A stretch of 64,000 bases of DNA from an uncultured Clostridiaceae bacterium (GTDB lineage: Bacteria > Bacillota > Clostridia > DUPQ01): assembly GCA_964563155.1 (NCBI GenBank), contig CAZLVL010000007.1:6389-70388 (forward strand), given 5' to 3'. Within the stretch, counting starts at the first letter, position 1. Every line of letters starts with the position of its first letter. A model generated the notes under the pieces. That model was not told where the DNA came from. It saw only the letters and a list, made by a program, of their open reading frames with translations, and searched no databases. Shown here piece after piece: positions 48,862-64,000 of the stretch. A program made the position numbers and the translations under genes.

Positions 48862-51843
48862 ATGACTTTTCCCCATTTATTTGCTAACAAAGAGAAACTA
48901 GATAAAATACGTGAAGATATAAAAAAATATGATTGGTATGAGAAATCCTTTTTACGCATCCAGAAAATAAGTGATGAGATGATAGAAAAGGGTTTTTTTG
49001 TACCTGATAAAAAGGGCTATGTTTTTAATGAAGCTTGTAGGGCCCATAATGTAAACCTCGTTTTTGACCCCTATGATAAGGACTCTTTTGTGTGTCCTGT
49101 ATGTAGGGTCAATTTTAAGGATGAACCCTATAGAAGGGCTTGGATAAACATTTATCATTCCTGGCTATCTCAAATGATAATCTACTTGGGAATCTCTTAT
49201 CAAATGACCTTTGATGACAAGTATGCTGATGCAGGTAGAAAGATAATATTGGGCTATGTTGAAAAGTATCCCAATTACCCCAATAGAGATAATGAGATTG
49301 GAACTACTAAATTGTCTCAATCTACCTTTGTAGAGTCCATATGGTTAACCCACCTTTGCTGTGGCTATGACCTTTTAAACCAATCTTCAGTTTTTTCTGA
49401 CCAGGATAGAAAAGAAGCTCTAGATCTATTTATCCAATCAGCTAAGACCATTTATGACTATGATGAAAGATGGAATAATAGACAGGCCTTTAACAATTCA
49501 GGGATGTGTGCAGCTGCTATCTTAAATGGAGATAGAAAGCTTTTAGACTATGTCCTAAATGGACCTCATGGTTTTGTAAAGCATATGGAAAACTCCCTAT
49601 TAGAAGATGGCCTTTGGTATGAGGGGGATAATTATCATTTTGCAACCCTACCCTCTATAGTAAACATCGCCCAAATGTGCTTGTTCAATGGTATCGATTT
49701 ATACAATAGAAGCTTTAATGGAAAGAGCATAAAAGATATGTTTTATGGCCCCCTCTTATCCTTGCAACCTGATGGAACCTTTCCATCTAGAAAGGACTCT
49801 CCCTATGCAAATTCTGCATCCAATAGGTGGTATGCAGGACTATATGAAATAGCCTATAGCAGATATCAGGATAAAGAGCTTTCTGACTTTTTAAATTTCA
49901 TATACAAGACACCTCCAGTGGATGCGAAAAAGATTACCAGTGCCGCTGGTATTATGGATGTTTTAGCCCCTGGTATTTCTTCTTTAGAATCTATGGACTG
50001 GAGAGGGTTTTTAAGTGTGGACCCTGAAAGGTCATCTGATATGGGACTACCAGTAACCGACTCAGTTAATATGAAAGGAACTGGTCTAGCGGTACTAAGA
50101 AGAGATGACTCTTATGCTAGTGTAGACTATGGCCACTATGGTGGAGGCCATGGTCATCCTGACAGACTGGCTGTTACCTGCTTTTTAAAGGGAAAAAGAT
50201 GGTTTTCCGACTATGGAACCGGCAACTACTATTTAGACCACTTAAGATATTATAGAAGTAGTCTAGGACACAACACAGTAGTACAAGATGGAAAAAGACA
50301 AGCTGTTGTTTCTGGTGAGTATGAATTCTTTTACAAGGGACAAGCATTTGATGCTACAAGAGCCTATGTAAAAGACATTTATCCTAAAACAGATGGTAGA
50401 AGGACCTTAGCCCTATTTGAGGATTCTCTTCTTTTTGATTTTGTAGAAATTGAATCTAATACTAAACATACCTATCATCAAGTCTTTCATTCTTTTGGAA
50501 AACTTAATGATGATGACTATGGAGATAGCCTATTGGAAATAGATGAAGAGGGCTATGACTTTTTAAGAAATGTTAAGAGTAAAAAGGTAGAAGCAAATAG
50601 GATAAATATTTTTACAGATAAGAATGCTAGTTTGTATATGTATTCTTCTTCTAAAGCTCCTTTTGTTCAACACTCTGCCATGGCTTATGGACCACCAAAA
50701 GAAATTCCTAAGCTCTTTCCTAAATTGATTATGGAAAAGCGGGATAAATTAGTTGTTTTTGCCAATTTATATGAGCATGTTGATAAGGATAATAAAAGAA
50801 AGGTTAAGTCTTTAGACTATATAGATGACTATAACTACAAGATTACTTTTTATAACAAAGAAGATATATACATAGATTTATCTCAAGGAATTGAGGTTAA
50901 ATACTTTAAAGATGGAAAGCTTGTAGTTGAATCCCAAAAGGTGGAAGTGCAAGAAGAGATAAATCTAGGAGTAGAATACCAAACTTGGATAGACTATAAC
51001 ACAGGTTCAGATAAGCAGTTTTGTGTAGAGGTTACCAACAGGGATTCAAATCATATCTATGCTGAAATTATGGGAAGAGACATCCTTTTATCCCCTAAGG
51101 AGTCTAAGATATTTAGATATTCAACCAATCATAGAAATATCCAGATTGATAAGGGTTATTTAAAAGCTTACTACAGTGAGACTGAAAAACCTTTTGAGAA
51201 AAAGATAATTGATGTCTTTAAGTATGATGGCTTTGGGCCCATTAACGAAGTAAGCTTGAAGGAGAATATTGTTATAGACCAAGAATCTCAAATAGCTAGG
51301 GCAGAAAGAAGATGGGAAGGCAAGTCGGATATTTCAGCAAAAGGCAGTATCTTTATGCCAAATGAAGACTCAATTGCCCTTGTATTAAAGGTAGAAGATG
51401 ACACTGTAATGTTTGATGGGGGAAAGTATAACTATGACAATGACTCTATTGAAGTCTTTTTTGACAGAAGAGATGAATTGTATAGAAATGCCAAGGATCT
51501 TAATCCTCAAACCTATGCCATGCTCTTAAAGGGCGGAAGCTCAGGTAATGTTTCCAAGGTTGTACCTATAAGTAAAAATATTGAAGATATAACTGCTATA
51601 TCATTGACCATGAACCAAAGGGAAAATGGCTATGATGTGGCCATGGTTCTACCTTTTGACTGTATTGGTGGAAAACCAGAAAAAAATGATATCTGGGGTT
51701 TTGATATAATTGTTTCTGATAGAGATAGCGGGGTAAGAAGAGAGTTTATGGCATATTTATCCCCAGCTTTAGAAGGTGAAAGGGTATATATGAGGGGAGA
51801 GGATTCCCACAGCCCTCAAAGATTTGTACTTTTAAGATTTTAA
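48862..51843 (+). CDS. heparinase II/III-like (polysaccharide lyase superfamily) protein with C-terminal beta-sandwich extension, no signal peptide
   Basis: GHGHPDRLAVTCFLKGKRWFSDYGTGNYY matches the heparinase II/III HxHxD...DxGT..Y block. N-terminal alpha/alpha toroid-like region. 993 aa. AAGGAGG RBS. Confidence 0.6.
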   Translation: MTFPHLFANKEKLDKIREDIKKYDWYEKSFLRIQKISDEMIEKGFFVPDKKGYVFNEACRAHNVNLVFDPYDKDSFVCPVCRVNFKDEPYRRAWINIYHSWLSQMIIYLGISYQMTFDDKYADAGRKIILGYVEKYPNYPNRDNEIGTTKLSQSTFVESIWLTHLCCGYDLLNQSSVFSDQDRKEALDLFIQSAKTIYDYDERWNNRQAFNNSGMCAAAILNGDRKLLDYVLNGPHGFVKHMENSLLEDGLWYEGDNYHFATLPSIVNIAQMCLFNGIDLYNRSFNGKSIKDMFYGPLLSLQPDGTFPSRKDSPYANSASNRWYAGLYEIAYSRYQDKELSDFLNFIYKTPPVDAKKITSAAGIMDVLAPGISSLESMDWRGFLSVDPERSSDMGLPVTDSVNMKGTGLAVLRRDDSYASVDYGHYGGGHGHPDRLAVTCFLKGKRWFSDYGTGNYYLDHLRYYRSSLGHNTVVQDGKRQAVVSGEYEFFYKGQAFDATRAYVKDIYPKTDGRRTLALFEDSLLFDFVEIESNTKHTYHQVFHSFGKLNDDDYGDSLLEIDEEGYDFLRNVKSKKVEANRINIFTDKNASLYMYSSSKAPFVQHSAMAYGPPKEIPKLFPKLIMEKRDKLVVFANLYEHVDKDNKRKVKSLDYIDDYNYKITFYNKEDIYIDLSQGIEVKYFKDGKLVVESQKVEVQEEINLGVEYQTWIDYNTGSDKQFCVEVTNRDSNHIYAEIMGRDILLSPKESKIFRYSTNHRNIQIDKGYLKAYYSETEKPFEKKIIDVFKYDGFGPINEVSLKENIVIDQESQIARAERRWEGKSDISAKGSIFMPNEDSIALVLKVEDDTVMFDGGKYNYDNDSIEVFFDRRDELYRNAKDLNPQTYAMLLKGGSSGNVSKVVPISKNIEDITAISLTMNQRENGYDVAMVLPFDCIGGKPEKNDIWGFDIIVSDRDSGVRREFMAYLSPALEGERVYMRGEDSHSPQRFVLLRF

Positions 51844-51853
51844 GGAGACCAAG

Positions 51854-53071
51854 ATGAAATTAATAGACAAGAAGGATAAGTATCTAGACCACAAAAACTA
51901 CTATGTGTTAGGACCATCAGTAGTCTATTGTCCCAATAGTGATGACATGCTTTTAAATGCTGACCTTTTTGACAACTCTGATAGCAACACAGGTTCCATG
52001 CTTTGGAGATCTTTAGATAAGGGTCTTACCTGGCAAGAAGAGGACTTAATTGAAAAATCCCATGTCTATGATTTTAAAAACTCCAAGGTTAAAAACGGCT
52101 ATGGTGCCCTTTATACTGATCATAAGGCTAAAGTTATTATGTATTTTGCCAATGAAACCTACTGGGTGGAAAACAAACTGGATTCAGTTTGGTTTATGAG
52201 AAAACTCTATTACAGACTTTCTTTTGACCAAGGTCATACTTGGACTGATAAAAAATATGTGATTCAAAAGGGTGATAAATATAATTCTATAGACTTTTTA
52301 AGAGATGGCTCCTTTGGTAAAAACATGGTAGCCAGTGTCAGCCCATATATTGTAAGGACCCTTGATGATAGTCTTTTAATAAGTGTACAAGTTCAAATGT
52401 TAAATGAAGATGGTAGCCTATATAATCCTACCACCATGGGCTATATGAAGGCAGGTGCCCTTAGAGCCAGCTGGAATAAGGATAAATTGGAGTATGACTT
52501 TGAGATAGACTCCTATGTTACAGTAGATCCCAAGTTTTCCACTAGAGGCCTTTATGAGCCAGCCTTTGGCTACATAGATAATAATAACCTAATCATGCTT
52601 ATGAGAAACAGTAACTATACTAAAGATAAAGATATCTTAGGAGTAAAGTATTTTAGTATTTCTAAAGACCAAGGGAAAAATTGGACTAAGCCTGAGATGC
52701 TTAAGTATGATGATGACAAACTAGTTTATTCCTCTTCTTGTATTCCTAAACTTTTAAATCACTCCAATGGTAACCTATACTTTATTGGTGTAATAAATGA
52801 AGATAATCCTAAGGGTAATCTTCCCAGATACCCCCTAGTCATTGCCCAAGTAGATAAAAAGACTTGTAGAATAATAAAAGATAAGATGCTTGTTATTGAT
52901 GACAAAAGAGAAAACCACATAATAAAAGAAGGTATAAAAAATGTGGTTGACTATTCAAATCATGGAATTTATGAGGATAAGTTTACTAAAAGAATTATTG
53001 TCTTAGCCCCCTATAGAGAGGACCTTTCTAATTACAAGTCCTACCTTAATAGGTATGAAATAGAGGTGTGA
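51854..53071 (+). CDS. BNR/Asp-box repeat glycosidase-like protein (sialidase-like fold), no signal peptide
   Basis: Three Asp-box motifs: SLDKGLTW, SFDQGHTW, SKDQGKNW. Confidence 0.6.
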   Translation: MKLIDKKDKYLDHKNYYVLGPSVVYCPNSDDMLLNADLFDNSDSNTGSMLWRSLDKGLTWQEEDLIEKSHVYDFKNSKVKNGYGALYTDHKAKVIMYFANETYWVENKLDSVWFMRKLYYRLSFDQGHTWTDKKYVIQKGDKYNSIDFLRDGSFGKNMVASVSPYIVRTLDDSLLISVQVQMLNEDGSLYNPTTMGYMKAGALRASWNKDKLEYDFEIDSYVTVDPKFSTRGLYEPAFGYIDNNNLIMLMRNSNYTKDKDILGVKYFSISKDQGKNWTKPEMLKYDDDKLVYSSSCIPKLLNHSNGNLYFIGVINEDNPKGNLPRYPLVIAQVDKKTCRIIKDKMLVIDDKRENHIIKEGIKNVVDYSNHGIYEDKFTKRIIVLAPYREDLSNYKSYLNRYEIEV

Positions 53072-53210: not shown

Positions 53211-56072
53211 TTAGTCTTCCAACTCAATCAAAAGACTCACAGTATTATATGCTTCAACTTCTAGGCTAAAGGTTTTTTCTTTAATGGTTATAGGGCTGGT
53301 ATATGAAGGATAAGCATCTTTTTCATCTGGCTTAACCATTTTAATAGACTTAATATCCTTAGTAAATTTAGCCTCAAACCTACTTCTGTTGCCATTACTT
53401 TCATAAAGTCTTAAGATTAAAGCCTTGTCATTATCCTCAGCTAGTTTTAAGGCTGAAATCACACAGCTTGTGTCTTGGTTAATCTCTACTAAGCTTTGAG
53501 TTAGGGGAAGGTGTCCTTTTTCTGGTCTTACAGAAATCGTGCTTAAAGGATGTGATATGGTGCTAGCTTCATCTATTAGTTTTTTGTTGTTATTTTGGTC
53601 AGCTGTTAAACTTAAAGCAAATTTCACCTTATGCATATGAATTTCAGGATGAGGATCTGGCTCATAGGTGCCTCTAATAAGGGTGAGGGCAATAGAGTTC
53701 TTATAGGTTCTGTAGCCATACTTTGAATCACTGTAAAGCATTAGAGATTTTTCATTTAAGTTATCATTGTTAGCTAAAACAAAGCCGGTTGAGGGCCTAT
53801 CATCATTGGCCTCTTCTCTTTCTAAAACACCTAGGGGAACCTGATATTTATATGTCTTTGTAGAGTAGTTAAAAGGAAGGATAAAGTTAAGTTGGGGTAC
53901 TCTATCTCCTCTTATACCAAACTCCTTCCAATCACAAACTAGGTCATAGACTAAAGAATTTGAGTGTTTGTCTAAATATATAGTTACCTTTATTTGGGAG
54001 TTTCTAAAATCACAGGTATAGGTTAAACTTTGCCTGATTAAATTGGGTCCAGCCTCGTAGTCAACAAGTTTAGCATTTTTACTTAAATTCTCAATATTTA
54101 TATACTTACTTACAATCCAAGAGGTCCTTCTTCTAATGGTAGCCTCTTCAATTAATCTAAAGGTTCCAGGTCCAGCTTCCTTTGAGATAAAGTCCTTGTT
54201 GGTCTTTTTATCTACAAGAGACTCTAAAGAAAAGTCTACTGGTGAAAAACTAGCTTTTATGCTCTTGTTTTCTAGAACAAAGCTAGCAGGTATGGACATT
54301 CTTTCAAAGACATAGTTTTCATACTCAATAACCTGGTCTCTTACAGATTTTAAGATATATGTACTATAGCCCATGGCAGGTACATCCACATCAAAAAGTA
54401 TCTTGTAATGGAATTGTACATCCCAGCCTTGGTAAGGCTCTTTAGTTACTAACTGATGAGATATTTCTTTCATTGTATGGTCATAGACCTTTATGGATTT
54501 CAAGTCATATTCCCAGTTCCATAGCTCAATCTCACAAACTTCTTTTCTATCAAAAAAGCTGGGATTAAAGACAGTAAAGATTCTGGTGGGACCTCTTCCT
54601 CTACAAATTTGGCTAACCTTAAAGTCCATTACTCCAGAGCCTGTACCAGCTCCCTCTGATGTGGTTAAGGCCTCTTCATCTTTTGCCAATACATAGTCTT
54701 TTAGGTCTAGGTTGGCAGCAATCTTATTCATAGCCATATTTCTATATACATTTCCTGCAGCAAAGGCTGTATGGTATTCTCCTAAAGCATGCTCTATGGT
54801 TTCAGAGCTACCTGTTCCAGGTAGGATATCATGGAATTGATTAAAGAGAACTCTTTGCCAGGCATCTTCAAATATGTGGTAAGGGTAGACCATGTAATTG
54901 TCTATAGAGGCTAAAGAGCTTAAGGCTTCTGCTTCATATAATAGGGATTCTGAGAACTTATTGCCTTTTTTAATCTTAGATTGACTGGTATAGCAACCAG
55001 TAAAGATAAAGTTTAGTTCGTGGTCCACTGTAGGTAGGGTAGATGAGATTTTTTCTAATGTTGCAAAAAACTCCCTATAGGAAGAAAACTTAATGTTAGG
55101 CCATAGGGGCCAGGTTTGCATGTCTAAAAGTCTTTCTATATCTCTTCTGGAAGGTCCACCTCCGTGGTCTCCCACACCATAGACATAAAGCATAGAATCT
55201 GTCTTTACCTTGTGGGTAAAAGCAGGGATTTTTAGTGCAGGTTCTGTGGTAACCCTAGAATTATAGTAGGAGGCATCGTTGTAAACAAGTATGCTTTTTC
55301 CAGATGGAGCCATCCATTTATATGCCATATGTTGGGTAAAACCCCTGGTATGATAATAGTATTTAACTCCAGTTTGGCTTAATATTTCAGGAACAAAGCC
55401 AGAGTGGCCAAAGGTGTCTGGTTCATAGTCCATATCAAAAAAGTCATAGTCTAAATCAAAAAGTTCTGAAAGATATTTTTTTGCATATAGTAGTTGTCTA
55501 ACATGGCTTTCTGAGCCTGCCAAGTTTTTATCTCCTTCTACCCAAGTAGTAGCTGTTACTTCCCATCTGCCTTCTTTTACATACTTTTTAATCTCTTCTA
55601 GCATTTTGGGGTCATACTTTTCTACCATCTGGTATACAGAGGCTTGAGATTGAGAAAACCTGAACTCTGGATACTCCTTTAAAAGGTTTAGCATAGTCTT
55701 AAAGGTATCTAAAACAACCATAACTGTTTCATCATACCTCCATTGCCAGTTCATATCTATATGGGCATGAGCAATACACATAAGAGTATATTTTTTCAGT
55801 TCACCCCTTATAGATTCCAGGCTCTTTTCACATTCTAAAGCAACATCTTTACTTATCATTCCTTCTTCTTTTTGTTTGTCTAGTAAGAAGTCTATTGCCT
55901 TATCCAAAATATCCTTTATTCCTACCTGGTGGTAGTATTCTATGCCATAAGCAAATTCTACTTGAGAGACAATTCTGTCTGTCCAGTATCCCTTTTCTTT
56001 TAAGGCTGTAAGGTCTTTTAATTTAGAAAAATTCATTTCCTTTTTTGCCCTCCATAAATTTTTTTCATGCAA
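53211..56072 (-). CDS. alpha-mannosidase (GH38), cytoplasmic
   Basis: YEPDTFGHSGFVPEILSQTGVKYY matches the GH38 catalytic nucleophile region. ~950 aa. Alternative start at 56036. Confidence 0.85.
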   Translation of the reverse strand: MHEKNLWRAKKEMNFSKLKDLTALKEKGYWTDRIVSQVEFAYGIEYYHQVGIKDILDKAIDFLLDKQKEEGMISKDVALECEKSLESIRGELKKYTLMCIAHAHIDMNWQWRYDETVMVVLDTFKTMLNLLKEYPEFRFSQSQASVYQMVEKYDPKMLEEIKKYVKEGRWEVTATTWVEGDKNLAGSESHVRQLLYAKKYLSELFDLDYDFFDMDYEPDTFGHSGFVPEILSQTGVKYYYHTRGFTQHMAYKWMAPSGKSILVYNDASYYNSRVTTEPALKIPAFTHKVKTDSMLYVYGVGDHGGGPSRRDIERLLDMQTWPLWPNIKFSSYREFFATLEKISSTLPTVDHELNFIFTGCYTSQSKIKKGNKFSESLLYEAEALSSLASIDNYMVYPYHIFEDAWQRVLFNQFHDILPGTGSSETIEHALGEYHTAFAAGNVYRNMAMNKIAANLDLKDYVLAKDEEALTTSEGAGTGSGVMDFKVSQICRGRGPTRIFTVFNPSFFDRKEVCEIELWNWEYDLKSIKVYDHTMKEISHQLVTKEPYQGWDVQFHYKILFDVDVPAMGYSTYILKSVRDQVIEYENYVFERMSIPASFVLENKSIKASFSPVDFSLESLVDKKTNKDFISKEAGPGTFRLIEEATIRRRTSWIVSKYINIENLSKNAKLVDYEAGPNLIRQSLTYTCDFRNSQIKVTIYLDKHSNSLVYDLVCDWKEFGIRGDRVPQLNFILPFNYSTKTYKYQVPLGVLEREEANDDRPSTGFVLANNDNLNEKSLMLYSDSKYGYRTYKNSIALTLIRGTYEPDPHPEIHMHKVKFALSLTADQNNNKKLIDEASTISHPLSTISVRPEKGHLPLTQSLVEINQDTSCVISALKLAEDNDKALILRLYESNGNRSRFEAKFTKDIKSIKMVKPDEKDAYPSYTSPITIKEKTFSLEVEAYNTVSLLIELED

Positions 56073-56253: not shown

Positions 56254-57861
56254 CTACAACTTATTCTTGTAATGCTCTGAATAGAGGTTAATGTGCTCCA
56301 TGGTCTTGTCCACTAGGTAATCAACACTAACAGTACCCATGCCAAAAATGGAGGTATCTAATTTATTGTTTATGGGTTTTTGCCATTCTTCTGATATGGC
56401 CCTTATTCCTTTTTGCATACCGATTATGGAGCCCACAGTAGCACCATTACAGTCTGTATCAAAACCAGCTTGGACAGACATGCATATGGACTTGGCAAAA
56501 TCACCCTTACCATAAAGTAATGAGGCTACAACTATTAAGGTGTTAGATATGGCATGACACCAGTGGTGTTGAAGAAATTCATCATATTTTTTATGTATTC
56601 GAATAAAACAATCATCTTGACTCATATTATTATCAAAGTTATTAATTATCTCCATAACTTCTTTGTATGTCCTACTAGTTGTGGGTATATGGTTAAGACC
56701 ATAGAGAATAGCATCTTTAATATCTTTGTAATATGGGGCCACACTAATAATTGCACTTATGAGCATGGAGGTATAGATACCATTTTTAACATGGGAAAGA
56801 CTGGCATCTTTCCAGGCCATAAGGGCTGCTTTTTTAGGGTCACCTGGATTTATGTAGCCATAATAGTCTATTCTAATTTGGGCTCCAATCCATTCTCTAA
56901 AGGGGTTTTTGTATTGAGCTGTTTGTGGGGGTAAAAAGCCTTTAATAATGTTTAAATATGCCACTCTTTCAGCTGTACAATAGGCGCTCTTAGGTTGAAG
57001 GTCCAACCAAGATTTGGCCACATTTTCTCCAGAAAATTCATCCCCATACTTATCTAAGATAACAGAGGAAAGCACTGTATAGTTGGTGTCATCATCAGAG
57101 GGTGCATTTTTTATAGCATCAGCAAAGGCCCTGTTTCTTAAATTAAAAGAGTACTTGTCATAAATCTCTTCTGTCATATCTGCCTTTTCTATGTATCTAT
57201 GCATAGGAAAGTTGTTGGTTTCTTTTAAAAGGGGAATTAGTTCATCTGTTCTAATGCCTTCTACTGGTTTTCCTAAAAGACAGCCTGCAATCCTTCCCAT
57301 CCATGCTCCTTCTATAGATTCTTGAAGTGATTTTGGAGAAAGAATTTTAAAGGGTATTTCCTTATCGGGTTTACTCAAACTATATATGGCTTCTAAGTTG
57401 TCTGGTTCATTAAAAGGATAGTTTTCAACTTGAGGACAGTTGCCTATCATTTCAAAAACAGTGTCAGCAAGTTTTTCCTTGTAATTGCTGGTTTCTAGCA
57501 TATGAATGCTTTCCATAAGCTGCTTTAATTTTGTTACATCAATACCTTGGTCTATACACTGAACATACTCTACCATTAATTGAGAAGAATAGAGCTCCCA
57601 CCAGTGTAGGGCTGTGTATTGAGGTTGAGGTTGTTTTTTAAGTCTAAATTCTGTTTTAGTATCGTTGTTGTCCAAACCTAAAAGATAATCAGCAGATACA
57701 TTAAAGATTCTACATATTTTTAGAAGGTTATCGCTATCAGGTGAGGTAACACTGGTTTCCCATTTTTGTACCGATTGTCTGCTAACTCCTAAAAGTTCTG
57801 AAAAGGCTTCTTGAGTAAGATTTTGTTGCTTTCTTAACTCATAAATTCTGTTTTTATTCAT
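56254..57861 (-). CDS. fusion protein: N-terminal XRE-family HTH DNA-binding domain + C-terminal ADP-ribosylglycohydrolase (DraG/ARH-fold) domain
   Basis: GGAGGT RBS 8 nt before ATG (MNKNRIYELRKQQNLTQEAFSELLGVSRQSVQKWE is an HTH_3). ARH signatures: Gly-rich GAWMGRIAGCLLG, mid-domain SDDDTNYTVLSS and C-terminal AGFDTDCNGATVGSIIG. Confidence 0.8.
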   Translation of the reverse strand: MNKNRIYELRKQQNLTQEAFSELLGVSRQSVQKWETSVTSPDSDNLLKICRIFNVSADYLLGLDNNDTKTEFRLKKQPQPQYTALHWWELYSSQLMVEYVQCIDQGIDVTKLKQLMESIHMLETSNYKEKLADTVFEMIGNCPQVENYPFNEPDNLEAIYSLSKPDKEIPFKILSPKSLQESIEGAWMGRIAGCLLGKPVEGIRTDELIPLLKETNNFPMHRYIEKADMTEEIYDKYSFNLRNRAFADAIKNAPSDDDTNYTVLSSVILDKYGDEFSGENVAKSWLDLQPKSAYCTAERVAYLNIIKGFLPPQTAQYKNPFREWIGAQIRIDYYGYINPGDPKKAALMAWKDASLSHVKNGIYTSMLISAIISVAPYYKDIKDAILYGLNHIPTTSRTYKEVMEIINNFDNNMSQDDCFIRIHKKYDEFLQHHWCHAISNTLIVVASLLYGKGDFAKSICMSVQAGFDTDCNGATVGSIIGMQKGIRAISEEWQKPINNKLDTSIFGMGTVSVDYLVDKTMEHINLYSEHYKNKL

Positions 57862-57954
57862 AAGGTCTACCTCCATAAGCATATAATATACCTTGCAATC
57901 TAAGCTTACAAGAAGATAAGGTTGCTAAATATGCAACTTAGAGTTGCAAAAGCC

Positions 57955-60732
57955 TTATGAAGGCCAAGTTATTTCAATTTCAAAGCCTAGCTTGAATACT
58001 CTTTCATTAAAGTCTTTTATTGAAAGAACAAAGGAGTTAATACCTAGATTATCTATAGAAGGGGTTCCCAAAAGAGCTCCATCCTTTTTATCTATTGAAA
58101 GCCAGATTGGCCCATAAAGTTCATAGACTAAATCATCCATATGAGAGCCTAAAAAGCCTAAATCATAAAGATATGTAGGTTTACATGAATAGGGTTGGTC
58201 TACCAAGGCCTTGGAGTCTATAGTGTCTTTAAAAATAAAAGGGTAGGGAAGACTTAAAAGGTCAGATGCAAGACCCCTATTTTTATTCTTATCAATTGCA
58301 TAAACCCTATAGTGGAATTGCAGCAAATCTCTATCTTTAGTTAAATCAAGACTTAAGAAGGGATTTTTAACCTGTTTTAAAAGATTGCTGGCATGTTCAA
58401 GCATTTTTTTAGATGTAGAAGAAGCCTTGTAACTAAAGTATTTAGTGTGAGATGGAATAAATGAAGAAATGTTTTCAGCAAAAACCATATAGGATTTGGC
58501 ATTTTTTGCTTTATCCCAACTTAAAAGTAATTTGTCTTGACTAAGTTCTAAGATAAGTCCTTTTACCTTATCAGGTGCTTCATGGGTGTATCTTTTAACA
58601 GGAGACCAATAGCCCCACACTCCATTTTTGTTTTTAGCTCTTACCCTCCAGTAATAGTGGGTATTGGGCCTTAAAAGCTTATACACCTCTATTTTCACTT
58701 GAACCCTTTTAGATAGTTTATGAAAGGCTGGACTATAGGGGATTTCACAAGACCTATCTAAACTTAGAATAAATTCATATTCAGAAGCATCAGGTAGACT
58801 AGTCCAAGAAAAAAGTCCTCTTCTCGGCTCTCTTAGTTGAGGGGCTATGGGCCTATCCATGGTAGATATGATGTAAGAGTGAGTTATCCTTAGATTTCCT
58901 TCTTCTGCCCTAATACCAAACCTATTGTTTCCAGCTCTTAATCTAGGAATACAAGTCCAATTAGCTTGGAAATATATGGTAAGAGAGTTTAGTCTAAACT
59001 TAGCAGCTTGGCCCTCTATAATAACATAAATCTCATTTACTAAATCAGACAATTTTTGCCCTTCATTTATGCTTGAGTATAGGGCAAACTCCCCAAGTTC
59101 ATTAACTGAAAAGGTCTCGCTAGATAGATTAGAAGTAATTTCAAGGCATCCAGAATATAGTCTACCTTCTAACAAAAAGCCAGTGATGGGATAAGAAGAC
59201 TGGTGGTCAAACCAAACTTTTCCATCTTTTTCGCAGGAAAAGAGATTATCTGTAATGTTCATTTTCCTGTAATGGAAAAACTTACCTAGGTTGGGATTTC
59301 TATGAAAATTTAAAATCTTCTTTCCATTTATAATGTTGGCATAGGGTCTTTTCTTACCATAAAAGGCTCCATAAAAATCTGGAGAAAAGACAATTTTTTC
59401 CTTGGGTTTTAAATAGAAGCCCATGGTGTAGGGATCTTTATATGAATCTTGCCAGTTTTCCCAAGAGATATCCTTTTTTGCTAAATCTAAAAGATAAGCT
59501 TTAGAGCCCTGCCAGGATTTTAAGATTTTATACAAATCCTTTTGTAAGTCCTTGTAGTCTAAAAAGCCCTTTTCATCATCAGGCAAGATATTTCCTAAAA
59601 AAGGAGAAGTGCTCCCTTCAAAGGCATCTACCAAGGTCTCTTTAGAATCTATTGATACTCTTAAAAGAGAGGGATTATCTGGTCTTTTTTCAGTCTTTTT
59701 AACCCCTAGGCCAGAGGCCCTAAGAAAAAGAGCAAAAAGGGCATTTAAGCTTTCTTTTTCTCCTCCAGTCATAAAGTTAAGATACCTAATTAGTGAAAAA
59801 TTCTTATCTTCCATATGGTCTGCTAGGTTTTGGTCTTCTAGGTTAATGTATTCATTAAAAAACTTCCAAAGAAGATAAAGTTTTTTCTCTTTCTTATCAG
59901 TGTTTTTAAAAAGACTTTGTATTAGGTTTTTAGTATTAGAAAAGTCTAAAAAACTATCTTTAAAGCCATAGATATATATATCTTTGTCATCTTTGTTTTC
60001 AATGGAATATTCAAGGTTGTTTTCAAAGGCTGGTTTTTCCTTAGCAACTCTACTAGTATTGTGGTAGTCCAAAAAGGTAAAGTTATCTATTTGATATTTA
60101 TACAAAAGGTCTTTGGTCCTAGCTGTTCTACTGGTAGAAATTACAGGTCTAAAATCTAAATCCTCTAACATGGCATTTTCTGGCCTATCGCCTAAGAAAA
60201 CATATGGAATATTATATAGGTCAGTAAGAATTATAAGGGTGTCATTAGCTTCAATGTTTACATATTTTTGCCTAGATTCCTTGGTAGGAACAAACTTTTT
60301 TATTGGCCTTTTGGAGTTGTTAGAGTACATCATGTGGCTAGGTTCATCATTTATTTGGTCTTTTAAAAACATATGACCATATATGGAGCCATCATGGTTT
60401 AAAATGGTAATAATAGAGGGTTCTAGATGGCCTTGAGCTTTTGTAAGTACATAGATATATTTTTTGCTAAGAGCTAGACTATATGGACCATTTAGGTTAG
60501 GTCCAAAGCTTTGAATATGATTGTTTTTAACTAAAAGAAGTCTATGATAAAGAGTATCGCAGGCTAAAAAGTTGCCAGACTTAAAAGAAACTACCTGGGT
60601 AATGTCACCTAAATGGTCTGGGTATCCACTTACCCTTGTAAACACTCTATTATCCGGCATAATCAATTCTTTTTGGCTTATGTCCCAAAAAATACTATTC
60701 TCTTTATCTGAATAGACACAAATCTTTGCCAT
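57955..60732 (-). CDS. large (925 aa) uncharacterised cytoplasmic multidomain protein; FN3-like module, C-terminal putative-Ig segment, possible degenerate transglutaminase-like core
   Basis: AGAGGT RBS. No signal peptide or TM. YYWRVRAKNKNGVWGYWS (FN3-like). LSIDKKDGALLGTPS (putative Ig motif). GEKESLNALFALFLRASGLG aligns to the transglutaminase-like G-C-x-x-[FY]-A-x-x-F-x-x-L-x-R-x-x-G-I core with the Cys position occupied by Lys. Confidence 0.55.
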   Translation of the reverse strand: MAKICVYSDKENSIFWDISQKELIMPDNRVFTRVSGYPDHLGDITQVVSFKSGNFLACDTLYHRLLLVKNNHIQSFGPNLNGPYSLALSKKYIYVLTKAQGHLEPSIITILNHDGSIYGHMFLKDQINDEPSHMMYSNNSKRPIKKFVPTKESRQKYVNIEANDTLIILTDLYNIPYVFLGDRPENAMLEDLDFRPVISTSRTARTKDLLYKYQIDNFTFLDYHNTSRVAKEKPAFENNLEYSIENKDDKDIYIYGFKDSFLDFSNTKNLIQSLFKNTDKKEKKLYLLWKFFNEYINLEDQNLADHMEDKNFSLIRYLNFMTGGEKESLNALFALFLRASGLGVKKTEKRPDNPSLLRVSIDSKETLVDAFEGSTSPFLGNILPDDEKGFLDYKDLQKDLYKILKSWQGSKAYLLDLAKKDISWENWQDSYKDPYTMGFYLKPKEKIVFSPDFYGAFYGKKRPYANIINGKKILNFHRNPNLGKFFHYRKMNITDNLFSCEKDGKVWFDHQSSYPITGFLLEGRLYSGCLEITSNLSSETFSVNELGEFALYSSINEGQKLSDLVNEIYVIIEGQAAKFRLNSLTIYFQANWTCIPRLRAGNNRFGIRAEEGNLRITHSYIISTMDRPIAPQLREPRRGLFSWTSLPDASEYEFILSLDRSCEIPYSPAFHKLSKRVQVKIEVYKLLRPNTHYYWRVRAKNKNGVWGYWSPVKRYTHEAPDKVKGLILELSQDKLLLSWDKAKNAKSYMVFAENISSFIPSHTKYFSYKASSTSKKMLEHASNLLKQVKNPFLSLDLTKDRDLLQFHYRVYAIDKNKNRGLASDLLSLPYPFIFKDTIDSKALVDQPYSCKPTYLYDLGFLGSHMDDLVYELYGPIWLSIDKKDGALLGTPSIDNLGINSFVLSIKDFNERVFKLGFEIEITWPS

Positions 60733-60995
60733 GTAATTACCTCTATTTCCTTTATTCTAGCATGGCTATTTTTAATTATCAATTGAGCAAATAGTCCAAG
60801 ACACAGACTGGTCTACTATTAAGCATTTTCCATATTTACTCTTATGAAAGGTGATAATAGCAATAATTAAGGGATTTTACAGAAAATTACCTAGAAAATC
60901 AGGAAAATTGTGCAAAATCTCGTAAATTACATCCTATTTTACAAAAAAAGGAATATAATTAAATGAGATAAGATATTAATAATGGAGGTATGAAA

Positions 60996-62009
60996 ATGAA
61001 AGTTTGTCTAATAGGTGGCACCGGTTTATTAGGTAGTGAAGCCGCTAGAGAATTAATTGCTAGAGGCCATCAGGTTAAAGCTATAGCCTTACCACCTTTA
61101 CCTGAAGGAGCTGTGTTACCACCGGAAATGGAAATATCTTTTAATAACTATATGACCATGACCGATGATGAAATTCTAGAAATGTTTGAAGGCTGTGAGG
61201 GTTTTGTATTTGCAGCTGGAATAGATGAAAGAGTGGAAGGACCTCCACCAGTCTATGATCTTTTTAAGAAGTATAATATTGAGCCTTTAGAAAGACTATT
61301 AAGACTTGCTAAGGAGTCAGGAGTAAAACATAGTGTTGTTCACGGTTCCTATTTCTCCTATTTTGCCAAAGAGTGGAAAGACCTTAACCTAACAGAACAT
61401 CACCCATATATTAGGTCTAGGATAGATCAAGAGAAAATGGCTTTAAGTTTTGCAGATGATAACTTTGATGTAGCTATACTAGAGCTACCCTATATCTTTG
61501 GAGCTCAACCAGGTAGAAAGCCTGTATGGGTCTTTTTAATTGAAAACATTAGAGCTATGGGCAAAACAACCTTATGGCCCAAGGGTGGAACTACCATGGT
61601 TACAGTAAAGCAAGTTGCCCAAGCCACAGCAGGAGCTCTTGAAAAGAATAAAGGGGGGCAATCCTATCCCATAGGTTACTACAATATGACCTGGAAGGAA
61701 ATGCTAACCATAATGCACAAGCACATGGGAGAGCCAGATAGAAAGATTGTCACTATCCCTACTTTTTTATTCAAGCTTAATGCTAAGAAAATGCAAAAAG
61801 ACTTTGTCGCAAGAAACATTGAGCCAGGTTTAAACATGATTGAATTTGTAAAGCTACAATGTGCCAATCAGTTTATTGATAAGTCTTTAGGAAGTATTCC
61901 TCTTGGGGTCAAAGAAGATGATATAGATGCTGCTATTGGTGAAAGTGTAAAGCTTTGCATAGACATCATTGACAACAAACTTGAAACTGTAGATATGAAG
62001 GGTGAGTAG
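60996..62009 (+). CDS. NAD(P)-binding epimerase/dehydratase-like (extended SDR / NmrA-like) protein
   Basis: KVCLIGGTGLLGSEAAREL GxxGxxG Rossmann N-terminus. GGAGG RBS 7 nt before ATG at 60996. Confidence 0.7.
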   Translation: MKVCLIGGTGLLGSEAARELIARGHQVKAIALPPLPEGAVLPPEMEISFNNYMTMTDDEILEMFEGCEGFVFAAGIDERVEGPPPVYDLFKKYNIEPLERLLRLAKESGVKHSVVHGSYFSYFAKEWKDLNLTEHHPYIRSRIDQEKMALSFADDNFDVAILELPYIFGAQPGRKPVWVFLIENIRAMGKTTLWPKGGTTMVTVKQVAQATAGALEKNKGGQSYPIGYYNMTWKEMLTIMHKHMGEPDRKIVTIPTFLFKLNAKKMQKDFVARNIEPGLNMIEFVKLQCANQFIDKSLGSIPLGVKEDDIDAAIGESVKLCIDIIDNKLETVDMKGE

Positions 62010-62026
62010 TAGAGAAGAACCCTCTT

Positions 62027-62458
62027 TTACATACCAATTTCTTCTAGTATTTCAATAGCCAGAACTATTGCATTAGGACAAACCTCTTGCATGGTTTCTT
62101 TGTTTTGCTCTCTTTTTTCTTCATCTCTAACATCAAAACCTAATAATTCCTTGCAAAGATAACTTTTATTCCTTTTAACATACTCATCCATAAAACGTAT
62201 GGTTAAATTATTACAATTAGCTTTAGCATCTTGGTCATCTCCACTTTCTTGACCATATTTAAGACCTAAGGCCATAAGAGCACCGGTTACACCACCACAA
62301 ACCTCACCACAGCGCATACCACCACCAAAGGCTCCTGCCATTTTCATGGCTGTATTTTCATCTAATCCTAAGTCCTTAGCATAGGCTCCAATAACCGCCT
62401 GTGAGCAATTGTATCCAGTGGAAAATAGTTCTAAAGCTTTATCAATTCTTTTCTTCAT
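62027..62458 (-). CDS. C_GCAxxG_C_C family putative redox-active protein
   Basis: GYNCSQAVIGAY and CGEVCGGVTGALMALG motifs of the C_GCAxxG_C_C family. 143 aa. Confidence 0.65.
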   Translation of the reverse strand: MKKRIDKALELFSTGYNCSQAVIGAYAKDLGLDENTAMKMAGAFGGGMRCGEVCGGVTGALMALGLKYGQESGDDQDAKANCNNLTIRFMDEYVKRNKSYLCKELLGFDVRDEEKREQNKETMQEVCPNAIVLAIEILEEIGM

Positions 62459-62600
62459 ACTTATTCGTGTGTCTTATGAGTCACACTCCTCCTTGTTTTA
62501 GTAATCTAAGTTTTTGCTACCTATATAGTTACTTATTGTAGGCTAAACATAATTATCCTTTAACATAATATGATACAAGCATAGATTATGCAAAGTTATT

Positions 62601-62670
62601 AAGAAAAGAGGGAAGAGGAGAGAAAAAAGAAAGAAGAAAGAAAAGATAGAGAGAAAAGAAAGAAACCAGC
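62601..62670. repeat. ~70-nt polypurine (A/G-only apart from one T) tract followed by a 9-bp GC-rich hairpin (62661-62682)
   Basis: aagaaaagagggaagaggagagaaaaaagaaagaagaaagaaaagatagagagaaaagaaagaaacc, then GAAACCAGC-TCA-GCTGGTTTC. Confidence 0.8.
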
Positions 62671-62759
62671 TCAGCTGGTTTCTTGGAAAAGAGTAGTGTT
62701 AATTGGTTTGTGTTTCAATGATTATTTGCTTCGTTTATGCCTAATGCTTGCAAGGTGCG

Positions 62760-64000
62760 TCACTCTCCGAATGAGACCACATAGGTACTAAACTCACTTT
62801 CTTTTTGCGCTGTGATGATAAGTGTATCATTGCATGTCCACCGGTAGCTCCTTATCAACCCATCAATCAGGTTTGCATTTTCGACGGAAGCGGTCAGTAA
62901 CTTTTGTATCCCAGTCGCCAAATCGACAAGCATCACATCATCTGTACCGGCCATGGGGTCGCTTCCGTAACCGATTGCCATTATCTTGCCAGACGGCGAA
63001 AACTGCGTCTCGGAACCAAGGTACCCAACCACTTTTGTGATCAGTGTCATTAAGCCTGTTGAGGCGTCTATGCGGCTGATATATGCTGTGGTATCGGAAG
63101 TCCCGTCAACATAGCTTGCATAGACAACGATACCGTCATTTACGCCGTCTATACGGAAGTTGGGAAGATTCGGAAACGATACGGAAACAATGGCCCCTGT
63201 AGTTATATCTACAATGCGGGTATCATGGAGTGAGCCAACCATGACATGGTAATCGGACACAAAGCCAACAATATCGTTGTTGAGTGCCGGTTCGATGATC
63301 CGCTGTTCTTTCCCTGTTCGCAGATCGATTGCCCATATGGTGGTGTCCGAAGAAGTGTCTTCGCAATCCTTGTTGGTGCGGTAAAGTGCATAATTGCCAT
63401 GGGGACTGACGAAAACGCTGTCAATCCAAAGCAGATAATAGCCTACACTCCTTTTTTTTGCCTCAATTTCATCCCAGTTTTTTCCTTCGTATGTGTCACT
63501 TGTTATTTTCTCAGATGTCAAGATTTTCGGATCGATACGCCATATTCCCATGTCGGTATAGGCGAGATATATACCTGCTTTATCGGTGGTAACAAAACCG
63601 CAAGACTGACCACCACCCCATTCCGACGGATATACAAAATAGTCATCCTCAATCCGTGCCTGATAGAACAGACAGGAATACTCGCCCTTCGATACACTTT
63701 TTATATTAATGCTGAAAGGATATGTTTCCACAGCAGCCACATCATTACCCTTGAATCCAAAGGCATTGGTATGATCTGCGATAAATTCCCCGCGGCGTTC
63801 TTCAAGATCGTCCACACTGCCAATCTCCTGACCTTGTTCGTCAAGCATACCGTTTGGATAGAGAATACGCATCATTTCGTCGTAGTCTTGTTCACTGACG
63901 GATTTCACCCATAGGGTTGAATCGTTCTCACCAGTTAAAACTCCCATATTCGGGTCTTTTAGGACAGGGATATCGTTCACAGTGCTGGGCTTGTTGTTAG
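62760..64000 (-). CDS. beta-propeller-like (TolB/PD40-like?) protein in a GC-richer segment; 5' end probably beyond the window
   Basis: ORF ends at a TGA (62757-62759). Composition visibly richer in G+C than the rest of the window. Repeated hydrophobic/Gly-Asp-rich blade-like segments (IVGFVSDYHVMVGSLHDTRIVDITTG, DGIVVYASYVDGTSD). The frame stays open upstream of the GTG at 63980 to the window edge. Confidence 0.5.
   Translation of the reverse strand, partial: NNKPSTVNDIPVLKDPNMGVLTGENDSTLWVKSVSEQDYDEMMRILYPNGMLDEQGQEIGSVDDLEERRGEFIADHTNAFGFKGNDVAAVETYPFSINIKSVSKGEYSCLFYQARIEDDYFVYPSEWGGGQSCGFVTTDKAGIYLAYTDMGIWRIDPKILTSEKITSDTYEGKNWDEIEAKKRSVGYYLLWIDSVFVSPHGNYALYRTNKDCEDTSSDTTIWAIDLRTGKEQRIIEPALNNDIVGFVSDYHVMVGSLHDTRIVDITTGAIVSVSFPNLPNFRIDGVNDGIVVYASYVDGTSDTTAYISRIDASTGLMTLITKVVGYLGSETQFSPSGKIMAIGYGSDPMAGTDDVMLVDLATGIQKLLTASVENANLIDGLIRSYRWTCNDTLIITAQKESEFSTYVVSFGE

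Follow-up and report, generated by a model that had tools for sequence, protein, structure and literature searches.

A transglutaminase-like multidomain protein with a dismantled active centre in an uncultured Clostridiaceae bacterium

What is a protein with the fold of a transglutaminase kept for when residues of its active centre have been replaced? This question is raised by a stretch of DNA of 64,000 nt (the window) from an uncultured Clostridiaceae bacterium (GCA_964563155.1, contig CAZLVL010000007.1), in which a complete open reading frame (ORF) encodes a transglutaminase-like (TGL) multidomain protein of 925 aa. The protein is homologous to members of the transglutaminase-like superfamily and has the domain architecture of its family; it has lost the catalytic Cys and His, the genes that accompany it in relatives are absent from the locus, and the ORF is intact in two independent assemblies. 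With both Cys and His gone, it cannot perform Cys-His chemistry. We consider it probable that the TGL protein is a cytoplasmic pseudoenzyme of an uncharacterised family, kept for a non-catalytic role, most plausibly the binding of a glycan or glycoconjugate ligand or scaffolding. What is new here is an inactivated and orphaned variant inside a known superfamily; an uncharacterised conserved module in its relatives is a by-product of the analysis. The gene and its start signals are as follows.

57955..60732, reverse strand: gene for the TGL protein, complete ORF of 925 aa with an ATG start (ORF list and translation)
60740..60782, reverse strand: promoter-like site (60782-60754) and AGAGG ribosome-binding site (60744-60740) 5' of the TGL ATG, consensus matches only

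The promoter-like site reads TTGATA-17-TAGAAT with an extended TG, and the AGAGG lies 8 nt 5' of the ATG. The window is 100% identical to contig k141_599830 of ENA ERZ27247346, and so is the TGL protein encoded there, while the independent Logan assembly SRR8925714 encodes a TGL protein of 99.7% identity.

The altered active centre

A word-indexed search returned the window protein itself and one homologue, a protein of 940 aa (P0002) with 39% identity over the full length. P0002 is labelled "transglutaminase-like domain-containing protein", and its residues 273-347 match Transglut_core with 26.8 bits against a cutoff of 23. Scans of genomes and metagenome contigs then placed the window protein at 37-39% full-length identity to 940-aa proteins in four GTDB genomes and five metagenome contigs; these nine closest-lineage loci represent about three lineages of Clostridia metagenome-assembled genomes. 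An exhaustive profile search added full-length relatives at 28% identity (P0004, P0005, P0007, P0009 and others) and many proteins of ~830 aa with N-terminal signal-like segments. An indexed search with the core profile found 247 proteins, mostly from Planctomycetota and allies and all named "hypothetical", and matches to the TGL family profile number in the thousands. By hmmsearch and alignment, the homology is colinear over residues ~205-925 with the distant members and over residues 1-925 with the cytoplasmic subfamily.

The window protein has no match to PF01841 even at E<=0.1, whereas its homologues P0002, P0005, P0007 and P0009 score 23.4-32 bits (cutoff 23). Its membership of the superfamily therefore follows by homology and not from its own score. 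The core of the TGL family has neither a dedicated Pfam model nor a sequence relative in the PDB, and PDB sequence searches with the whole protein, the core profile and a transglutaminase-only profile gave nothing meaningful. Within the transglutaminase-like superfamily, the TGL family forms an unnamed branch with a distinctive architecture.

What has become of the catalytic residues? The alignments placed the three triad positions of the window protein at the following codons.

59755..59757, reverse strand: Lys326 (AAA), at the family's catalytic Cys position and at the N-terminus of the core helix
59671..59673, reverse strand: Pro354 (CCC), at the family's catalytic His position
59626..59628, reverse strand: Asp369 (GAT), the retained third triad residue, invariant in the family

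Cys at position 326 and His at position 354 are found in all nine of the other closest-lineage loci and in three more distant cytoplasmic relatives, and the Cys-His-Asp triad is present in over 97% of 72 distant members. Two alignments, one of 15 and one of 74 sequences, show no variation at the Asp position and almost none at Cys and His, where the window protein is the only exception. Where the nine related loci read GSGACGSFNG, GSHAALRL and (V/I)DA, the window protein reads GGEKESLN, NPSLLRV and VDA. Relative to the family, the changes at the active centre are G322T, C326K, G327E and H354P. K326 and P354 (codons AAA and CCC) are each at least two nucleotide changes away from the family state, and since both also occur in the independent assembly SRR8925714, they are not an assembly error. 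There is no Cys within residues 59-499, and the core holds a single His, H306. The invariant acidic residues E245, D369, D386, D399 and E445 are all kept.

The domain order of the TGL protein is an N-terminal beta-rich domain (NHL-like), a transglutaminase/papain-fold core, a jelly roll resembling carbohydrate-binding modules (CBMs), two FN3 domains and a He_PIG Ig domain. The segments, numbered in residues and in window positions, are listed below; AF2 denotes the AlphaFold2 model, and pLDDT its predicted local distance difference test score.

60154..60732, reverse strand: residues 1-193, N-terminal beta-rich domain, possibly NHL or propeller-like (AF2: 14 short strands, pLDDT 36-79)
59947..60153, reverse strand: residues 194-262, pre-core beta region with the family motifs PAFxNN and IEN (E245, N246), from alignments
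59617..59946, reverse strand: residues 263-372, transglutaminase/papain-fold core
59419..59616, reverse strand: residues 373-438, partly helical insert with the invariant D386 and D399 (low-confidence model and alignment)
58858..59418, reverse strand: residues 439-625, CBM-like jelly-roll beta-sandwich (structural matches)
58573..58827, reverse strand: residues 636-720, first FN3-like domain with YYWRV at 693-697 (weak Ig_Rha78A_N/fn3 matches, stronger in homologues; AF2, Foldseek)
58237..58572, reverse strand: residues 721-832, second FN3-like domain (fn3 match in P0002 at 723-763; AF2 beta-sandwich)
57958..58236, reverse strand: residues 833-925, C-terminal He_PIG-like Ig domain (He_PIG matches in P0002, P0005, P0007, P0009 and P0148; AF2 strands)

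The full-length AF2 model, built from a 74-sequence alignment, had a mean pLDDT of 72.9 and a predicted template modelling score of 0.68. Foldseek with this model returned FN3/Ig arrays only, a result that backs the C-terminal beta-sandwiches and hides the core; residues 195-640 were therefore remodelled alone. In the model, helix 326-339 begins with K326, and the next two strands are flanked by P354 and D369. Such a placement of three residues is the classical geometry of the transglutaminase triad. As modelled, the window protein has a papain-like fold with the nucleophile position at the N-terminus of a helix and the His and Asp positions on the following beta-strands. The closest structural matches of the jelly roll were CBMs (CBM6, 29, 36, 61 and the N-terminal domain of CE2), to which it has no sequence similarity (about 4-17% identity); a match to PAW was no better than those to many CBMs. 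The N-terminal beta-rich domain is confined to the cytoplasmic subfamily. Weak NHL matches were seen in the homologues P0014 and L017, a Pfam scan of the window's own N-terminal domain found no match, and the domain has no similarity to the 284-aa propeller-like protein encoded 5' of the module at locus L001.

Several of these features had been proposed in an earlier reading of the window that was made from the letters and translations (the sequence-only reading). Its suggestion of a Lys in place of the nucleophilic Cys, made by matching a stretch position by position to the catalytic helix, is now carried by the alignments at K326; the loss of His to Pro at 354 had escaped it. The FN3-like YYWRV module that it described agrees with the single weak FN3/Ig_Rha78A_N signal that Pfam and NCBIfam gave on the window protein (around residues 675-715), with the modelled beta-sandwiches and with the FN3 arrays found by Foldseek, and its putative C-terminal Ig segment is recovered through the He_PIG matches of the homologues. 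The N-terminus, MAKICVYSDKENSIFWD, has no hydrophobic signal-like segment, in keeping with its statement that a signal peptide is absent.

The module of the relatives and the neighbours of the window gene

In which genetic setting do the active relatives work? In four divergent cytoplasmic lineages (L001-type, L017, L018 and L023), TGL is the first gene of a three-gene module and is followed by genes for a ~1000-aa protein and a ~830-aa (alpha/alpha)6 glycosidase-like protein. The stop and start codons of the module genes overlap or abut.

L001:3536-11836: three-gene module
L017:3827-11917: three-gene module
L018:8466-16913: three-gene module
L023:9001-16664: three-gene module

The module partners are 42-45% identical across the lineages. 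The ~1000-aa partner has no Pfam or PDB match; a relationship to the heparinase II/III-like protein of the window was tried and rejected (hhalign probability 6%). For the ~830-aa partner there are weak (alpha/alpha)6 signals only (MGH1-like, GH116, rhamnosidase, and 3cih at E 0.013). In all nine closest-lineage loci, where the contig reaches far enough, the order is TGL (940 aa), the ~1000-aa protein, the ~830-aa protein, a helix-turn-helix (HTH)-ADP-ribosylglycohydrolase (ARH) gene, a 146-aa protein, AraC on the opposite strand and a gene of glycoside hydrolase (GH) family 38. At L017 and L023 the module is followed by GH43 and a GFO/IDH/MocA oxidoreductase, and nothing glycan-related lies 3' of the module at L018. 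None of the L017, L018 and L023 loci has an ARH. The module appears to be an undescribed glycan-related system; literature searches on combinations of ARH, GH38 and transglutaminase found no description of the locus or the family, and the PADLOC anti-phage models gave no match for TGL or its two partner proteins and only generic HTH matches for ARH. Genes for an FAD amine-oxidase-like protein and a sugar-type transporter of the major facilitator superfamily (MFS) lie 5' of active modules at both L005 (4583-8635) and L004 (9-2917). The secreted Planctomycete-type members of the family are stand-alone genes, and since they have no conserved neighbours, their contexts are uninformative on function.

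Whereas TGL heads the module in the cytoplasmic subfamily, the window gene heads none: by tblastn, the 64-kb window holds no match to the ~1000-aa, ~830-aa, 146-aa or AraC proteins. Because the module is present in four divergent lineages, this absence is most simply explained by a deletion that brought TGL next to ARH. The genes that now follow TGL are these.

56254..57861, reverse strand: HTH(XRE)-ADP-ribosylglycohydrolase gene, 3' of TGL and co-oriented (HTH_3/ADP_ribosyl_GH; 535 aa from Met8)
53211..56036, reverse strand: GH38 alpha-mannosidase gene (Pfam; 941 aa, ATG at 56036 by the calls on the identical contig)

The HTH-ARH gene is listed as an ORF of 542 aa (56254-57882, reverse strand). 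Met8 is its probable start, given a GGAGG 8 nt 5', the alignment of the orthologues from residue 8 and the 535-aa call on the source contig. The gap between TGL and ARH is then 93 nt (72 nt as listed) and holds a weak 5-bp hairpin and a weak promoter-like site only. The acidic motifs SDDDT (256) and DTDC (468) are kept, so the protein may combine an active hydrolase with a repressor-type HTH in one fusion. It is 65-67% identical to the HTH-ARH proteins of the related loci. At L005 a gene with a Macro domain, a second ADP-ribose-related gene near ARH, is found 5 kb upstream. The GH38 gene is listed as an ORF from a TTG at 56072 (53211-56072). ARH and GH38 are separated by a terminator-like hairpin at 56190-56166 and by a site at 56106-56078 that matches the promoter consensus in 11 of 12 positions, so GH38 is probably a separate transcription unit. 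On the forward strand, 48862-53071 encodes two proteins, one of 993 aa that is heparinase II/III-like and carries a C-terminal CBM9, and one of 405 aa that is BNR_2 sialidase-like; neither has an N-terminal signal-like segment, which is unusual for a CBM-carrying lyase.

Retention, decay and other roles

Then, is the window gene a retained gene or a dying one? It could be a vestigial relic that lost its function after the deletion of its partners and is now decaying, its open frame reflecting a recent loss; we regard this as rather unlikely. Both partners are missing from the locus, two of the three triad residues are lost, and the core, which Pfam no longer recognises, is the fastest-diverging domain. 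Among four active orthologues the core is the best conserved part (77% identity), whereas between the window protein and the active ones it is among the worst (33%); the corresponding values for the other domains are 62-76% and 32-53%. Expressed as a Poisson distance ratio, the core is about 4.2-fold over-diverged and the other domains 1.8-2.9-fold. Against decay, the frame is open across all 925 codons, and a random sequence at the genome's GC (guanine plus cytosine) content of 35% would have a stop about every 14 codons, as estimated from base composition. The protein has reached 38% identity without a frameshift and with few short indels, its promoter-like and ribosome-binding signals are intact, and the window and SRR8925714 strains differ in TGL by 7 synonymous and 3 non-synonymous codons. 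Also, 228 columns are at least 90% conserved in the 72 distant members; 81 of these are retained by the window protein, as compared with 88 by the active orthologue P0002, and those found in P0002 but not in the window protein include the cluster G322, C326, G327 and H354. The data, although the counts are small, speak for a protein that has been retained with its active site dismantled rather than for a pseudogene in decay.

How could such a protein have arisen? In the ancestral state of the cytoplasmic (Clostridia-type) branch, TGL would have belonged to the three-gene module with overlapping stop and start codons, set among sugar-utilisation genes (GH38 or GH43, an MFS transporter, oxidoreductases). 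As the module lies amid such genes, the family most likely acts on an imported glycoconjugate, in which the active TGL might perform a thiol-dependent amidase, peptidase or acyl-transfer step. In the lineage of the window the partner genes are gone from the locus, leaving TGL abutting HTH-ARH, and the active centre has been dismantled while the rest of the protein stayed about as family-conserved as in an active orthologue. We infer that the protein is still made, that it has a non-catalytic role exerted through the jelly roll, FN3 and Ig domains, and that it may be expressed together with the HTH-ARH regulator.

Some points weigh against the retained pseudoenzyme. The binding role is deduced only from the types of domain, and the chemistry proposed for the active relatives is likewise a guess. 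Evidence of selection is thin, with 10 codon differences in all, and acceleration of the protein as a whole is equivocal. With L004 as a yardstick, TGL is about 1.8-fold more diverged than ARH predicts; the N-terminal region of GH38 is relatively even more diverged, so that TGL shows no excess against GH38. A general acceleration of the TGL protein was therefore dropped, and the statement is kept for the domains. Co-transcription with ARH is a possibility only, and a weak promoter-like site lies in the gap between the two genes.

The neighbouring ARH suggests a different role, in which TGL would be the partner, the ADP-ribosylated substrate, the modifier or a hidden ADP-ribosyltransferase (ART) of a system with HTH-ARH. 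The sequence-only reading had proposed ARH as such a partner, and it was right that the two genes are co-oriented, with ARH on the same strand and directly 3'. TGL and ARH also share a locus in the nine closest relatives, the ARH motifs are kept, and the Macro-domain gene at L005 fits the theme. The linkage, however, is confined to one sublineage, in which ARH stands two genes farther downstream, and it is absent from the three other module lineages. HTH-ARH homologues number at least 7,936 at E<1e-30, and three that were sampled (51-63% identity) have unrelated surroundings in which TGL and GH38 are both missing. Linkage in a single sublineage, together with homologues in unrelated contexts, indicates that ARH is not a specific partner of TGL, and the proposed partnership is not supported. 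As for a hidden ART (R-S-E or H-Y-E), for which a check had been advised, no ART family or fold was detected. We therefore hold a role of TGL in ADP-ribosylation to be very improbable.

Could the protein still be an enzyme with another chemistry? Lys326 might serve as a Schiff-base or general-base residue, or other residues might support a PNGase-like glyco-amidase. D369 and the invariant acidic residues E245, D386, D399 and E445 are kept, and the context is glycan-related (GH38, the BNR protein, the heparinase-like protein). There is also a eukaryotic parallel: the transglutaminase-fold PNGase (Png1/NGLY1) acts upstream of the cytosolic GH38 mannosidase (Man2C1). The transglutaminase fold of eukaryotic PNGase is documented (PMC9102325). 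Enzymes of the Png1/NGLY1 clade have Cys-His-Asp and Zn-binding Cys pairs that flank the core, whereas the window protein has an incomplete triad, no such Cys pairs and no PNGase core among its structural hits. The parallel is limited in another way, in that GH38 is linked to one TGL sublineage only and others have GH43. Moreover, Cys and His were lost along with the neighbouring glycines that give the nucleophile turn its shape, no substitute Cys is available within residues 59-499, and we know of no precedent for a Lys-based hydrolase of the transglutaminase fold. A surviving enzymatic activity is accordingly extremely doubtful in our view. As for the PNGase-like or substrate-binding role that had been considered before, the CBM-like jelly roll and the linkage to glycoside hydrolases keep substrate binding plausible, and the PNGase-specific features were not found. 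A more far-reaching scheme, which we think improbable, has TGL and its ~1000-aa and (alpha/alpha)6 partners as a bacterial cytoplasmic system for dismantling glycoconjugates, analogous to PNGase/GH38 and with TGL as the thiol glyco-amidase; the window copy would then have been exapted as a ligand sensor or co-regulator that, with HTH-ARH, controls the GH38 locus.

The favoured pseudoenzyme differs from the characterised members of the superfamily (PF01841; bacterial TGL peptidases, TglA 9crn, BDI_1141 3kd4, arylamine N-acetyltransferases), which have Cys-His-Asp, in the lack of Cys and His. No characterised member among the Pfam, NCBIfam and PDB matches was seen to have the architecture of the TGL family or its three-gene module. 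Inactive transglutaminase folds are familiar from other proteins. Erythrocyte protein 4.2 is an inactive animal transglutaminase whose nucleophilic Cys is replaced and which is kept as a structural or scaffolding component; unlike the window protein it is a four-domain animal transglutaminase with other accessory domains and a membrane-skeleton role. Catalytically inactive domains of the transglutaminase fold that go back to an active enzyme are described for XPC/Rad4 and for inactive PNGase paralogues of parabasalids (PMC6222260, citing Anantharaman et al. 2001). Like the window protein, they lost catalytic residues and were retained, in their case for protein or ligand interaction. The XPC/Rad4 group is eukaryotic, belongs to the PNGase clade and is fused to DNA-binding domains, whereas the window protein is bacterial and without PNGase-specific features; homology between the two is claimed at the level of the superfamily only.

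The TGL protein is the entry point to a sizeable and wholly uncharacterised family that combines an active site of the transglutaminase fold with carbohydrate-binding-like and Ig-like domains, with a cytoplasmic branch tied to a conserved module of two large proteins of unassigned function near glycoside hydrolases. The window copy, which is also without its partners, amounts to a natural knock-out of the active site. Set against active orthologues, it identifies the catalytic residues, the surfaces retained for binding and any function that does not depend on the module. Should the active members prove to be glyco-amidases or glycopeptide-processing enzymes, bacterial glycan catabolism would gain a new step. 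In annotation, the names transglutaminase and PNGase should be avoided for the window gene, and it should not be assigned to an ADP-ribosylation system.

Two observations concern the window at large. An Rfam scan of the whole 64 kb found no family at its gathering score. The end of the window (62001-64000) has a GC content of 0.42 as compared with about 0.35 elsewhere. There, an ORF of 406 aa without a Pfam match (62760-63980, reverse strand) corresponds to a 466-aa gene on the source contig, likewise without a Pfam match, which adjoins a two-component system and a GH3 gene.

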